This document shows, piece after piece, positions 19,823 to 25,277 of a stretch of DNA of 32,000 bases (its first letter is position 1; each line of letters starts with the position of its first letter). The position numbers were made by a program, and so were the translations under genes. Below the pieces are notes generated by a model that worked only from the letters and a program-made list of their open reading frames with translations, was not told where the DNA came from and did not search any database. Source of the stretch: Pyrococcus furiosus DSM 3638 (GTDB lineage Archaea; Methanobacteriota_B; Thermococci; Thermococcales; Thermococcaceae); NCBI RefSeq assembly GCF_000007305.1, contig NC_003413.1:707318-739317 (forward strand). The letters are read 5' to 3'.

Positions 19823-20639
19823 TTATCCATTTTTTCTGTGGAGCATAGAGTAGAGTTCCTCTAATGTGGGTTCGTTTCGTTTTATCTCCTCAACGGTTAT
19901 ACTCTCGCTCACGAGGAGCGTGTTGATTTCCGACGGCTCGGCATTTTCCAGCAGGATGTACCCTTTCATGATTTGGGTAGTATCCGTTATCCTCAAGCAC
20001 TTCGGCAACCATCTTGATGTTCTCCACCTTCAGGGAGATTGAAGCTCCTGTAGGAAAACCGCGCTTGAACTCCTTCAAACTTCCTGAGAACAGCACTCTG
20101 CCCTCTTTGATAACTGTAATCTTCTCGCATAGCTCGTCAACGTCGCTCAAAATGTGTGTGGAGAACAAGACTGCGGTGTTTCTCTCTTTCACATATCTCT
20201 CCAAAAACCGCTTGAATTTGAGCCTCCACTCGGGGTCGAGTTCTCTTGTGGGCTCGTCGAGGATTAGAACCTCAGGGCTCCCAAGAAAAGCCCTCGCCAT
20301 TGCGACCCTCCTCTGGGTTCCACTTGAGAGAGCCGAGACCTTTTTTCTGGCGCACTCCAAAAGCTCGAAGAACTCCAACAGTTCTCTAAGCTCTTTCTCA
20401 TCGTAAACCCCCTTCAGCGAAGCATAGCGCTTGAGGTTGTCCCACACTGAAAGGCTCGGATAGAGAAGGTCGTACTCCGGAAGGTAGCGGAGGCCGAGGA
20501 TCGGGCGGAAGGCGGTGGTCTTGCCTGCCCCGTTGTGGCCGAGGTAGGCGTGGACTTCGCCGGGCTTCACAGTCAGGCTTATCCCTCGAAGAACTTCTTT
20601 TCTATTTATACTTTTCCTCACGTTTTCAAGCTCTACCAT
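19823..20639 (-). CDS. ABC transporter ATP-binding protein, single frameshift near 3' end
   Basis: AYLGHNGAGKTTAFRPILGL, LSSGTQRRVAMARAFLGSPEVLILDEPT. C-terminus continues in another frame as GYILLENAEPSEINTLLVSESITVEEIKRNEPTLEELYSMLHRKNG* (19823..). Confidence 0.8.
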
Positions 20640-20664
20640 AAAACCACCTTACGGCTCTTACCAC

Positions 20665-21343
20665 TTATACTATCATTATAGCTTCCGGGAGTCTTTCTCC
20701 ATAGTACTTGATTACTGCAAAGTAAGCTGCCAGCACAACCAACAGAGTGGGAAAAGCAACAAGTAGTGTGCTTGAGAGGTAAATGCCGACTCCAAAGTAT
20801 CTTGCAAGGTACAAGGAGAGGAGGTAGGCTATCATGAACACAGCAACTTTCAAGAAATCAAGGTGTTTCTGCTCTACAAGGGCACACAGCAGTGTGAACA
20901 GCAGACTGAAGGCAAAGAGGAGTGGGATGCAGGATAGCATAGTCAGGAGTAGTAAAAATGGAGTGGTTTTCGCCCCAACGAATGTTCTGAGTATACTTCC
21001 AATTGCAAGACTTCCTCCGATGAGGAGAGATCCGTAGATGGAAGCAGCCCCCGCCTTTAGGAGAAGGATTCCTGAGGGGCCAGGGAGACTGAGAGTTGTA
21101 TCTCCAGTTGCTCCTGTCGTTTTGGCCCATGATACGGGGGAGTTACGATGATACTGACCATGATGGAGAACGCCACTGCCAGCATCCCAAGGGTTAGTCC
21201 ATTCTCAAGACTCGGACTGAGAATGGAAATTGCCATGTGATTATGACTACGTTCGCTAAGGCGTTCACTCCAAGAATGCCGAGCTCTTTCGCAGTGTATT
21301 TAACTTCCTCCATTAACCGAGATTTGATCATCTTGTGAGGCAT
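20665..21343 (-). pseudogene. Multi-TM ABC permease-like gene, disrupted
   Basis: MPHKMIKSRLMEEVKYTAKELGILGVNALANVV / MAISILSPSLENGLTLGMLAVAFSIMVSIIVTPPYHG / TGATGDTTLSLPGPSGILLLKAGAASIYGSLLIGGSLAIGSILRTFVGAKTTPFLLLLTMLSCIPLLFAFS...; at least two frame changes. Confidence 0.6.
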
Positions 21344-21376
21344 TTCTCAAACCTCCAGAGCATGCAGTATGAAATT

Positions 21377-22285
21377 TTATAGTTTTTTGATGAAGTTGCT
21401 TTGCTGTAAAGCTGCATTGTTCACGATAAAAGCGCATATTTCGCTGATAGATGCCTCCCGGATCTCTTCGTTTTTGATCTTTGTAATATTGGAGAGGGCA
21501 TGGCGTTCTCCAACGACCGACACTCTTTCATTAATTGCCACTGTTACATTATGGTGGTTTTTCAGGATTTTCTTAATCTCTGAAAGTGACCCCATCTCTA
21601 TTGCATAAACATCCTTAAATGCCTGTTTCAGATTGTTGGGAGAATCTGCGTACAGTAGTTTTCCTTGATGTAGAATCAATATATAATCGGCTATCTCCTC
21701 AAGCCAGGTGGCCGTGTGAGATATGAGGAAAATGCTTTTACCTTTCTTTAAGGCATGATGAATTAGCTCCATAACCTTAATTCGCCCCCAAAAATCCAGC
21801 TCTTCGAATGGTTCGTCCAAAATATAAATGTCTCTGTCAGGTAGAAATGCAAGGAGTATTGACAGGCGCCTTTTTAAGCCTCCGCTTAAGTTTCCGACAA
21901 GAGTGTCCCTATACGGAGAGAGCCCCAGGTTATCCAATAACTCATTTGCCTTAGTGTCGGGTTCTCTAAAAAGCCTGGAATACAGTTCAACAATTTCCTG
22001 AACAGTTAAGGCATCCTCGACTATATTATCTTGGGGTAGGTATGATATCATTTGCCGGATTTCTCCTTTGTTTGAGTTTATTTCCTTTCCTTTTACCTTT
22101 ACATTCCCCTCGTCGTAGGGTAAAAGCGTACTGATTATCTTAGCCAAGGTGCTTTTCCCACTTCCGTTTTTACCAAGCAATATTATCAGTCCCGGAGGGG
22201 CTGAAAAGTTAATCCTGTCAAGAGCACGTGTTTTTCCAAATGTTTTTGTTAGTTCTTTGCACATAATGAGAGGTTCCCCCATCAT
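21377..22285 (-). CDS. ABC transporter ATP-binding protein
   Basis: Walker A LLGKNGSGKSTLAKII, signature LVGNLSGGLKRRLSILLAF, Walker B IYILDEPFEELD. Confidence 0.93.
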   Translation of the reverse strand: MMGEPLIMCKELTKTFGKTRALDRINFSAPPGLIILLGKNGSGKSTLAKIISTLLPYDEGNVKVKGKEINSNKGEIRQMISYLPQDNIVEDALTVQEIVELYSRLFREPDTKANELLDNLGLSPYRDTLVGNLSGGLKRRLSILLAFLPDRDIYILDEPFEELDFWGRIKVMELIHHALKKGKSIFLISHTATWLEEIADYILILHQGKLLYADSPNNLKQAFKDVYAIEMGSLSEIKKILKNHHNVTVAINERVSVVGERHALSNITKIKNEEIREASISEICAFIVNNAALQQSNFIKKL

Positions 22286-23397: not shown

Positions 23398-23400
23398 CTG

Positions 23401-25049
23401 TCAGGGCCCCCTGTTACTTTCTGACATCCTTACTAGCTCTTCGACAAATTTTCTACTTTCATTGTACAGTACAGGGCTAGTGTTTATGTACAGGCAGATC
23501 TCACATATTGATGATACTCCGGGGGGAAGCGCAAATTTTCTGGACAGCTGGTGTACTAATCGCTCTGGATACCTCGTTAAAACATAAAGATAGGGATCAT
23601 TAACCATTTTTTCCACAATATCTGCAATATCCTCTTTGTACACGTTTCCATACTTAAGAAACTTTGACAGCTCACTGCCCGCACAGCAGGGTGTTACGTC
23701 CCCACTGCTTGTGATGGTTAAGTTCAGATTGTACCAGCACCCTCCTTGGAGTAACGGAGTAGGGCTTAAATATATTTCATCTTTTGGTATTCTCTCCCTG
23801 GCTCTTCCAATCCATGAGATTGGGGAGCTCGCTATTAAAAACCCCTCAATACTATCACCGAGCAATTTATATAGAAGATTCAACTTTTTTGTTTTTGTGG
23901 TTTGAACTCGTAGGATTGCCCCACTAACTAATTTCTCTTCCACTGTCTTTTTTAGGTTCTCAAGAACGTTTTTGTAATATTGTTTACCTAGACATTCAAC
24001 GTGGAAAGGGGTGATGGAAACTTCCACGTAGTCGGTGTACTCTAGTATCGGATCATAGAACTCTTTGTGTGTAAATAAATACCCATTAGTAACTATTTCA
24101 GTTTTGAACCCCAGCATTTTTGCAAATTTTAGAATCTTTATCAGATCCTCCTTGAAAGGGGGTAATGTTACTTCCCCACCTGCAATGCATACTTTCTTTT
24201 CGTTTAGATACCGGGTTAATGAGTGTGAAATCTTTTTTAGAACCGCTATGACTTTATCAACCTTGAGGGTCTGAGTTGTTTCAGGTGAACATGAGACGTA
24301 ACAGTGATTGCACTTAGCATTGCAACATCTGGTGTATTCAATGACTACACCATTAAACCTAACCTCTTTATAGGGCTTTGTGTCTGCATGGCGGGTTAAT
24401 GGTATTGTCTCACTTCTTTTTTTGTTTTTAATGTCCAGAAATGTGTGCCACCCCTGCTGGGAGGGAACATGACAATAATCAAAAGGATCTACGCTCCTCG
24501 ATATATACCAGTCCCACCGGGAAAGGAATAGATTAAAAAGCTCTTTTTTGCGTCGTTGCCCAATATCACAATCTGATTATATGAGCTGTTCAGGATATCG
24601 TTTTTTAAAATATCCCTTAGGTGTGGGTCTTTTCTGAGCAGAATGTTGCCCTCTCTGGAACCCGTCTGATGGAGAACAGATGAAAGCACTAAAGTTTTTT
24701 CAAGTAATTTATCCAAAACATCCTTATTCTCACACTTTAAATACACCCAGTAATCATATATCCAGGGACTAATGGGGGACAACAAGTCAAGCAACAAACT
24801 TCCCGCACTCTCAACGTCGGAATCTTTGAGGAGAGCCAGCCTATCATCGACAACAATTATGCAGGACTTTATTGAGCTTTTAGACATTGGAACCTTTGTC
24901 AGCCCAGACGTATTGATATGTGATTTCTCAATGAGCTGGTTAGAGTCTACTACAAGGTAGTCACTGTATTTCAAAACATCATAGTGCTCTTTGGGAAGAT
25001 TGAGCAGGGATCTTGGGCGGGAAATATAAAAGATTAAAAGGTCTTCCAT
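23401..25049 (-). CDS. Radical SAM protein with SPASM-like C-terminal Cys cluster and an unrecognised N-terminal domain; single frameshift (or two overlapping genes)
   Basis: Radical SAM motif CNAKCNHC is encoded at 24324-24301 in the frame of ORF 23401..24117, open back to about 24576 with no usable start. Adding one A at A6 (24544-24549) merges it with ORF 24489..25052: ...VILGNDAKKELFNLFLSRWDWYISRSVDPFDYCHVPSQQGWHTFLD...YTRCCNAKCNHCYVSC. C-term GGCWYNLNLTITSSGDVTPCCAG...CEICLY. Confidence 0.75.
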
Positions 25050-25059
25050 CAATACTCAC

Positions 25060-25277
25060 CTATAACAACTTGTTTATTGGAGAAATCCCCTCAAAGGACA
25101 ATGCTTTTGTAGCCGCCGCTGCGAGTATTCCAGACACTATCCCAGCCGCAACACTCTTTACAAAAGATGTTGCCGCTGCCGCTTTGGCTGCTGCGACTAT
25201 GGCGGCAACAATAGCGTTGGGTTTAGATCCCGAAGGTGCCCCCACATTTCCTCCAAGTACATAGCAAACTCTTCCAT
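25060..25277 (-). CDS. Small Ala-rich, Cys-free peptide; candidate precursor for the adjacent radical SAM/ABC system
   Basis: GTG-start ORF: MGAPSGSKPNAIVAAIVAAAKAAAATSFVKSVAAGIVSGILAAAATKALSFEGISPINKLL (61 aa). Upstream GGTGAT (25287-25282) with ATG at 25277 opens MEEFAMYLEEMWG..., which joins this frame if G5 (25244-25240 minus) is G6, giving 72 aa. Confidence 0.55.

Follow-up and report, generated by a model that had tools for sequence, protein, structure and literature searches.

A rare and probably peptide-modifying radical SAM cassette, frameshifted in Pyrococcus furiosus

Within the 32,000-nucleotide stretch of the Pyrococcus furiosus DSM 3638 genome analyzed here (NC_003413.1, positions 707,318 to 739,317; termed the window, with all coordinates counted from its first base), a co-directional run of minus-strand genes at 19823-25277 contains a unit of four genes whose order is conserved across the copies found in other genomes. 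These genes encode (i) a precursor peptide of 72-82 residues, (ii) a two-domain radical S-adenosylmethionine (SAM) enzyme of about 549 residues, (iii) an orphan multi-pass membrane protein, and (iv) a DrrA-like ATP-binding cassette (ABC) ATPase. The run had been delineated in a first-pass annotation made from the sequence alone, the core idea of which--that an ABC exporter and a radical SAM/SPASM maturase form one unit with a ribosomally made peptide--holds. The locus is read here, with a probability of roughly 60%, as the copy in P. furiosus of a rare four-gene cassette, spread horizontally, for a peptide that is made by the ribosome and modified after translation (RiPP).

In P. furiosus the precursor-peptide gene (25060..25277) is frameshifted and unnumbered, PFDSM3638_03665 spanning its 61-residue part only; a Shine-Dalgarno-like GGTGAT, as read from the sequence (25282..25287, minus strand), stands 4 nucleotides upstream of an ATG at 25277. 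The gene for the putative radical SAM/T-SPASM maturase (23401..25049) is split into two pieces, namely PF0736 (25049/25052-24489; 186/187 residues), which corresponds to an N-terminal, pseudo-radical-SAM domain, and PF0735 (frame 24576-23401), which corresponds to an EpeE/YydG-like catalytic part carrying the motifs CNAKCNHC and PCCAGSE. Then follow PF0734 (22282..23397), a membrane protein of 371 residues with about 10-12 helices by hydropathy, and PF0733 (21377..22285), an ABC ATPase of the DrrA/ABC-2 type with 302 residues (Pfam ABC_tran, 1.5e-28). All of these genes lie on the minus strand, separated by gaps of 10 and 3 nucleotides and finally by a 4-nucleotide ATGA overlap of the PF0733 start with the PF0734 stop. 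The membrane protein, the ATPase and the tight spacing are thus as first described.

The 186-residue and 371-residue products are exactly identical to PF0736 and PF0734, respectively. PF0733-PF0736 and the unnumbered 61-residue open reading frame (ORF) PFDSM3638_03665 are given in this order in the supplement to PMC6640164; Operon-mapper, according to the supplements of the P. furiosus re-annotation, places PF0733-35 in in-silico unit 339 and PF0736 with the 61-residue ORF in unit 340. In Pfam searches Radical_SAM (1.5e-12) and SPASM (1.7e-5) match within the PF0735 frame and ABC_tran matches both ATPases of the run; the peptide, PF0736 and PF0734 obtained no Pfam match.

Two lesions become apparent when the window DNA is aligned with the copies from Thermococcus celericrescens (L001) and from a Thermococcaceae metagenome-assembled genome (MAG; L017), in both of which the precursor and enzyme genes are intact. 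Within the peptide gene, six consecutive G residues in the intact copies are reduced to five in the window (25239-25243), which parts the leader from the core; within the enzyme gene, one nucleotide is missing at about 24512, which splits the enzyme into PF0736 and PF0735. Both deletions are private to the window among the three copies. The T. celericrescens enzyme (WP_245610376.1) is an uninterrupted protein of 549 residues and 98% identity, and the MAG holds a second intact copy. Hence two features of the first-pass annotation need amendment. The Ala-rich, Cys-free ORF at 25060-25245 stands, but it is frameshifted, and its conserved N-terminal motif lies in another frame. Likewise, the two Cys motifs ascribed to the radical SAM protein (CNAKCNHC and CWYNLNLTITSSGDVTPCC...CEICLY) do share one frame, but no ATG, GTG or TTG occurs in that frame upstream of the CxxxCxxC, and the two-domain nature of the enzyme, with PF0736 as the N-terminal domain of the same protein of about 549 residues, had been overlooked.

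A sequencing or assembly error was initially favored as the source of these frameshifts, because a third homopolymer indel (T5 versus T4 at 27511) breaks a neighboring gene. This explanation was rejected: the enzyme deletion allele is identical in CP003685 (strain COM1) and in nine other independent Logan/JGI assemblies, and the G5 allele of the precursor is identical in all seven of the loci from those ten assemblies that reach the site. Since the alleles recur in independent assemblies, both lesions are real.

Because the two deletions part the leader from the core and the N-terminal from the catalytic domain, the copy in P. furiosus has most likely become an inactive relic. That it might still function, with PF0736 and PF0735 as separate subunits, PF0735 initiated at a rare ATT codon and the GTG-initiated 61-residue core made leaderless, seems quite improbable. 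The two domains do occur as separate overlapping ORFs (240 and 346 residues) in a Stellaceae MAG (L021, 5312-7032), where the split is either natural or another frameshift, and RefSeq versions of PF0735 with 387 and 313 residues start at an Ile of the window frame, which implies a non-canonical start; moreover, PF0734 and PF0733 are intact in P. furiosus, and a TrmBL1 peak from chromatin immunoprecipitation sequencing lies upstream of the PF0736/PF0735 operon (PMC4706686), the sole mention of these genes in the literature searched. Yet it is exactly the two defining genes of the system that the deletions have hit, the core has been cut off from the conserved leader motif, PF0735 lacks a canonical start codon ahead of its CxxxCxxC, and decay has occurred in another lineage as well. 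In the cassette of an Archaeoglobus sp. (L014:397-2250, also L015 and L016) an adjoining DDE transposase of an insertion sequence has cut the radical SAM gene to 278 residues; the enzyme remnant is without CxxxCxxC and no precursor ORF is present. With this second independent case, decay of the cassette is recurrent.

The intact copies reveal what the disrupted peptide gene would have encoded. In the window, the leader motif MEEFAMYLEEMWG begins at the ATG at 25277, in a frame other than that of the core; this ATG, whose equivalent is GTG in T. celericrescens (72-residue precursor, KUH34555.1 / WP_157065433.1; aligned to the window at L001:7760-7990) and ATG in the MAG, is taken to be the true precursor start. 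The 61-residue ORF (25245-25060) opens with GTG, its core occupying 25245-25063 and its TAG stop 25062-25060, and the 59-residue core contains 18 Ala and no Cys. Members of the precursor family consist of a motif, LAxYLExxWGxP, and a Cys-free, Ala-rich core of 57-66 residues. Their alignment (A2) shows an invariant A-x-Y-L-x-x-x-W-G near the N-terminus and, close to the C-terminus, a Ser-Pro that is likewise invariant. Compared with the conserved N-terminal motif the core is divergent, its invariant residues being Ala, Thr, Leu, Ser and Pro. The cores contain 17-18 Ala, about 50% small residues (Ala/Gly/Ser/Thr) and about 26% Val/Ile/Leu, and have a net charge of +1 to +4, a grand average of hydropathy (GRAVY) of 0.8-1.0 and a hydrophobic or aromatic final residue. 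Cys is absent from every core (5/5), so that the thioether donor of sactipeptides and ranthipeptides is missing.

A homologous ORF of 72-82 residues lies immediately upstream of the enzyme gene in all five lineages (5/5) that have a full-length enzyme of this type, namely T. celericrescens, the Thermococcaceae MAG, an Archaeoglobaceae MAG, the AT-rich MAG GCA_027078975.1 and one further metagenomic lineage (locus labels L001, L017, L002-5/L018, L006/7 and L008/9). When 177 sequences--the loci collected to that point plus the window--were searched by tblastn with the precursors, matches occurred solely at this site. The co-occurrence of peptide and enzyme, which had been proposed as a check on their pairing, is therefore strict. 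The database copies of the precursor are all labeled 'hypothetical protein'.

The enzyme, by contrast with its presumed substrate, has recognizable relatives of established structure. Among NCBIfam models TIGR04078 (YydG) ranks first, with an E-value of 1.3e-29 for the window and of 4.4e-28 to 2.9e-44 for relatives, versus about 1e-16 for the next family and only about 1e-7 for AlbA; the alignment spans model positions 2-292 of 309. A sequence search of the PDB likewise places EpeE (YydG; 8AI1) at the top (E = 1.6e-14; enzyme residues 236-526, chain residues 32-324) and aligns the PCC of the enzyme with C222/C223 of EpeE: C456, which is the second Cys of PCCAGSE, is paired with C248 of the 8AI1 chain (native C223, offset 25). 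In EpeE this Cys223 gives hydrogen back to the C-alpha radical (PMC13012085). C456 is invariant in an alignment of six sequences (A1), as are C243, C247 and C250 and also C438, C455, C516 and C519, the latter four of which would be sufficient for one auxiliary 4Fe-4S cluster. Finally, when an AlphaFold model of the enzyme (predicted local distance difference test, pLDDT, 65; better in the catalytic half) was submitted to Foldseek, the top nine matches were all EpeE chains (template-modeling scores 0.76-0.78; E = 1.6e-13 to 2.4e-12), followed by viperin at 1.5e-4.

What sets this enzyme apart from the EpeE/YydG family, whose members have a single domain of about 320 residues, is an extra N-terminal domain of about 215 residues present in all members (full-length homologues have 529-565 residues). 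This domain alternates strand and helix in the structure model, and its profile aligns with that of the catalytic core in hhalign (probability 87%, E = 3.9e-6), matching at the GGE, TNG and D..H regions. Moreover, some distant members (P0007, P0008, L020 and L023) keep a CxxxCxxC at the start of the N-domain, which is gone in the Thermococcales proteins. Because of these two features the enzyme is recognized as a tandem duplication of a radical SAM core, the first copy of which is degenerate in Thermococcales.

The cassette as a whole is most similar in plan to epeXEPAB (yydFGHIJ) of Bacillus subtilis (EpeE/YydG, PDB 8AI1-8AI6), in which a precursor, a radical SAM enzyme, a membrane protein and an ABC ATPase are encoded in the same order. 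The catalytic part of the enzyme has EpeE as its closest relative, and the radical SAM triad, four auxiliary-cluster Cys and the equivalent of Cys223 are common to both; as in that system, the product here would be hydrophobic, Cys-free and presumably membrane-active. The differences are nevertheless considerable. The enzyme scores about 100 bits against a YydG cutoff of 300 and has the additional pseudo-radical-SAM domain; the core, at 57-66 residues, is about three times longer (the mature epipeptide has 17 residues); neither a recognizable EpeP-type protease nor a separate EpeB-type permease is present; and the hosts are hyperthermophilic archaea.

Because hidden Markov model (HMM), PDB sequence search and predicted fold all rank EpeE/YydG first, and because the hydrogen-donor Cys is conserved, epimerization is favored over C-C/C-O cross-linking, which the first-pass annotation had also offered; EpeE-type epimerization of a long, Cys-free core is the best guess. 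An alternative that carries some weight, though it is considered unlikely, is that this is a RiPP system in which the EpeE-like enzyme installs some other modification: a C-C or C-O cross-link, chemistry at a beta or gamma carbon, or dehydrogenation. YydG scores of 98-152 bits (103.6 for the window fragment, 98.6 for P0001 and 118-152 for relatives) are well under the equivalog cutoff of 300, the extra N-domain with its CxxxCxxC in some relatives bespeaks a diverged architecture, and switches of chemistry are known among radical SAM subfamilies. However, the free Cys beside an auxiliary-cluster ligand (PCC), an EpeE hallmark, is invariant here, and the core is without the conserved Cys, Trp, Tyr, His or Lys-aromatic pairs that known cross-linking enzymes use.

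A second point of reference within the Thermococcales themselves is provided by the subtilosin-like sboA/albA/albC clusters of Thermococcus celer and T. nautili (bioRxiv 10.64898/2026.07.27.741052). These and the present cassette are both radical-SAM-dependent, include an ABC component and were probably acquired horizontally; theirs, however, pair a Cys-containing sactipeptide precursor with an AlbA-type thioether enzyme, whereas the core here is Cys-free.

Besides T. celericrescens, intact cassettes are present in Thermococcaceae MAGs, in an Archaeoglobaceae MAG and in a small number of further metagenomic lineages, and scans of GTDB representative genomes and JGI metagenomes returned few true relatives. 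More distant two-domain homologues occur in Rhizobiaceae, Actinomycetes, Stellaceae, Ca. Electronema, Streptomyces and Nitrosocaldaceae. At five of these wider-family loci an ORF of 148-161 residues with an Ala-rich hydrophobic end lies upstream of the enzyme and matches the NHLP-related models TIGR04509/NF038399 at 22-31 bits, all such scores falling below the cutoffs of 34 and 40. The bacterial relatives have NHLP-related precursors at the position that the short precursor occupies in the archaeal cassette, and have no adjoining transporter; upstream of the thaumarchaeal homologues (Nitrosocaldaceae), too, lie NHLP-like precursors. The Electronema and Streptomyces loci have short precursors in place of the NHLP-like ones. 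In Ca. Electronema halotolerans (L022:4650-5152), tandem ORFs of 67 and 83 residues lie upstream of the two-domain homologue; because each proceeds from a KAGDFWD motif to a Gly/Ser/Ala-rich tail, they may be precursors of another type that serves the same enzyme family.

These wider associations invite comparison with the proteusins (NHLP leaders, polytheonamides, PoyD-type epimerases), which likewise combine a long core of small and beta-branched residues with a radical SAM enzyme; NHLP-related precursors (TIGR04509/NF038399) adjoin distant members of the present enzyme family. The Thermococcales leader differs in having just 13-17 residues or so and in not scoring as NHLP, and the enzyme, with its T-SPASM domain, is EpeE-like and presumably not PoyD-like. 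Thermococcales-type precursors match neither NHLP nor Nif11-type leaders in Pfam and NCBIfam at E<=10, and NHLP ancestry of the short archaeal leader is a lead only.

Turning to the transport genes, PF0733 belongs by its best match to the DrrA subfamily (1.7e-47), with models for PmtA and lantibiotic-protection ABC proteins matching too. PF0734, in which E39, E55 and R64-x-F-S-C are conserved, is an orphan: when 1.84 billion cluster representatives were scanned exhaustively with HMMER, four members of its family emerged, all from this cassette; word-indexed homologue searches, swamped by hydrophobic words, returned known cassette members only. Genes for the membrane protein and the DrrA-like ATPase come after the enzyme gene in Thermococcales, in the Archaeoglobaceae MAG, in the L008/L009 metagenomic lineage and in Archaeoglobus sp.; the L006 cassette keeps the peptide and enzyme genes, the transporter genes being absent. 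From its gene overlap and operon linkage PF0734 is presumed to be the permease or immunity partner of the ATPase, the conserved cassette having no separate protease or permease gene and no other membrane protein.

The association of a small hydrophobic peptide with transport genes could be understood in two further ways. In the first, the small ORF provides the transporter with a small membrane subunit or an anchor and is no substrate, and the enzyme acts on some other molecule. This seems very improbable: the GRAVY of 0.8-1.0 would fit a two-helix membrane protein, and no leader protease can be identified, but it is the N-terminal motif that is conserved and the core that diverges, the L006 locus retains peptide and enzyme where the transporter is missing, and bacterial relatives have NHLP-related precursors in the same place with no transporter beside them. 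In the second, which the first-pass annotation had entertained, the peptide is a bacteriocin of the circular or helical kind, like AS-48, the ABC genes confer immunity and the radical SAM enzyme is incidental. Enterocin AS-48 and carnocyclin are presumably similar to the peptide in size and in helical, hydrophobic and cationic character, and have adjoining ABC genes; the core here, helical and hydrophobic, with 57-66 residues, a charge of +1 to +4 and a hydrophobic or aromatic end, would suit such a role, as would the adjoining ABC-2-type ATPase. Nonetheless this interpretation is very improbable, inasmuch as the five precursors match no bacteriocin family in Pfam or NCBIfam at E<=10, PF0734 matches neither DUF95/SpoIIM-like nor other Pfam or NCBIfam families, the enzyme is strictly co-inherited with and always adjacent to the peptide, and relatives use NHLP-type leaders typical of enzyme-modified RiPPs.

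The RiPP reading, by comparison, is supported, and the intact cassette probably makes and exports a long, Ala-rich peptide modified by the radical SAM enzyme. The proposed mechanism has three steps. First, a precursor of 72-82 residues is made with its short N-terminal recognition motif, LAxYLExxWGxP, and its Cys-free core. Second, the degenerate N-terminal domain (about 215 residues) would dock this precursor, while the C-terminal 330 residues of the enzyme would abstract a C-alpha hydrogen and return one from the opposite face, so converting selected L-residues to D-residues. Third, the orphan membrane protein and the DrrA-type ATPase may export the hydrophobic product, protect the producer, or both, as operon linkage suggests.

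Several observations weigh against this reading or parts of it. The precursors have no detectable EpeX/YydF similarity (Pfam and NCBIfam, E<=10). Aligned by hhalign with NHLP-type leaders, the archaeal precursor matches over an 11-residue motif only, at an insignificant E of 0.037 and a probability of 1.4%; YLEEMWGAPSG in Thermococcales pairs with FRRDFWNDPAA, that is, Y-L-E-E-M-W-G-A-P with the leader motif F-x-x-x-F-W-x-D-P. Synonymous and non-synonymous codon changes within Thermococcales are in a ratio of about 1:1, the numbers being small, which is a weak sign of purifying selection. The enzyme is a distant relative rather than an equivalog of YydG and could perform another chemistry; the predicted L-to-D epimerase activity draws on sequence and modeled structure. 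No protease for removal of the leader is recognizable within the cassette. The permease role of PF0734 is conjectural, because its structure model, built from a three-sequence alignment, has a pLDDT of 38 and is unusable. Lastly, because the Stellaceae domains are separate ORFs, a split enzyme might still work, so that the death of the system in P. furiosus is probable rather than certain.

A bolder proposal goes beyond the RiPP reading just outlined, to a new archaeal RiPP class, encoded by the intact cassettes of T. celericrescens and Archaeoglobaceae, in which the tandem-domain EpeE-like enzyme epimerizes a peptide of about 60 Ala/Val/Ile-rich residues at many positions. The product would be a heat-stable, D/L-patterned, membrane-inserting molecule--a polytheonamide-like pore former, or an archaeocin active near 100 C--with its own family of exporter or immunity membrane proteins, and its WGxP leader would be read by a pseudo-radical-SAM domain instead of a RiPP recognition element (RRE). 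In this full form the proposal is distinctly unlikely.

That the cassette has spread horizontally is suggested by the boundaries of the DNA shared among copies. The segment 19609..25937 shares 96.7% identity with T. celericrescens, whose flanks are without any match to the window, and 98.8% with the Thermococcaceae MAG, whose flanks match at only 84-92%. It ends within a 55-residue ORF (19638-19805, plus strand), a remnant of the C-terminal end of a P-type (E1-E2) ATPase; the complete gene, of 720 residues, lies at the corresponding place beside the cassette in T. celericrescens (L001:13323-15485); because of this correspondence, transfer by recombination is suggested. As for a mobile-element vehicle, there is no tRNA, no flanking direct repeat, and no plasmid or phage match. 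The other end of the segment, at 25937, is straddled by a 44-residue SHOCT-domain ORF (PF0737; 25892-26026, plus strand).

The shared segment also includes, downstream of PF0733, a second small permease (20665..21346) and a second ABC ATPase (19823..20639), both on the minus strand, which the first-pass annotation had counted as part of the run's system. The permease is fragmented over three frames; the window, L001 and L017 each have private 1-nucleotide indels in it (at 21238, 21141, 21109, 21086 and 21072). The ATPase is degenerate, having a 74-nucleotide deletion after Walker A and a 2-nucleotide deletion near its 3' end relative to T. celericrescens, in which this gene, too, is split (70 + 227 residues). 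The pair has a higher GC content, and in other lineages it does not occur downstream of the cassette. Given independent indels in all three Thermococcales copies and this absence elsewhere, it is a decayed neighbor, not part of the system.

The best site for the TrmBL1 motif TATCAC-N5-GTGATA upstream of the operon (25300-25940) lies at 25485-25501 (TATCATCAGAGAAGATA) and has 3 mismatches, which is at chance level. An Rfam scan of 19000-26500 gave zero matches, and a scan for promoters and terminators of the bacterial type, which does not apply to archaea, gave counts at chance level.

Other features of the window may be recorded here. The neighboring gene interrupted by the T5 run at 27511 encodes a CcdA-like/cytochrome-c-biogenesis membrane protein (27119-28022, plus strand) and appears as two overlapping ORFs; the MAG (L017) has T4 at this position and an intact gene of 258 residues, 94-95% identical. 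The genes further downstream, at 27963-31107, we take to be CopR and CopA. Two stretches, 16700-20600 and 1-7000, have 51-57% GC versus about 40-45% for the rest of the genome and window, and look like Thermococcus-derived insertions; the first includes genes for a methyltransferase, a 4Fe-4S-domain membrane protein and a 310-residue membrane protein (16754-19540), and its segment 18621-19648 is 91.6% identical to the Thermococcaceae MAG. At 5986-6787 (plus strand) overlapping ORFs of 145 and 125 residues lie in different frames where the re-annotation has a single 'anion transporter' (PFDSM3638_03530), which may be frameshifted.

No paper on this cassette family was found in the searchable literature (subscription-only papers excepted), and the four-gene cassette is previously undescribed. 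It comprises three uncharacterized families: the precursor, the tandem-domain EpeE-like enzyme and the membrane protein. For genome annotation, PF0735 and PF0736 emerge as halves of one broken gene, and the unnumbered 61-residue ORF as the remnant of its substrate. For enzymology, the family offers a case of precursor recognition without an RRE domain, if the N-domain indeed serves for docking. The genetically tractable strain COM1 has the same two single-base lesions, so that repair and testing would be possible there. More generally, very little is known of modified peptides in hyperthermophilic archaea, the only literature found being the 2026 preprint on subtilosin-like clusters; the cassette provides a concrete route to ask whether peptides with D-amino acids serve archaea as weapons or signals.

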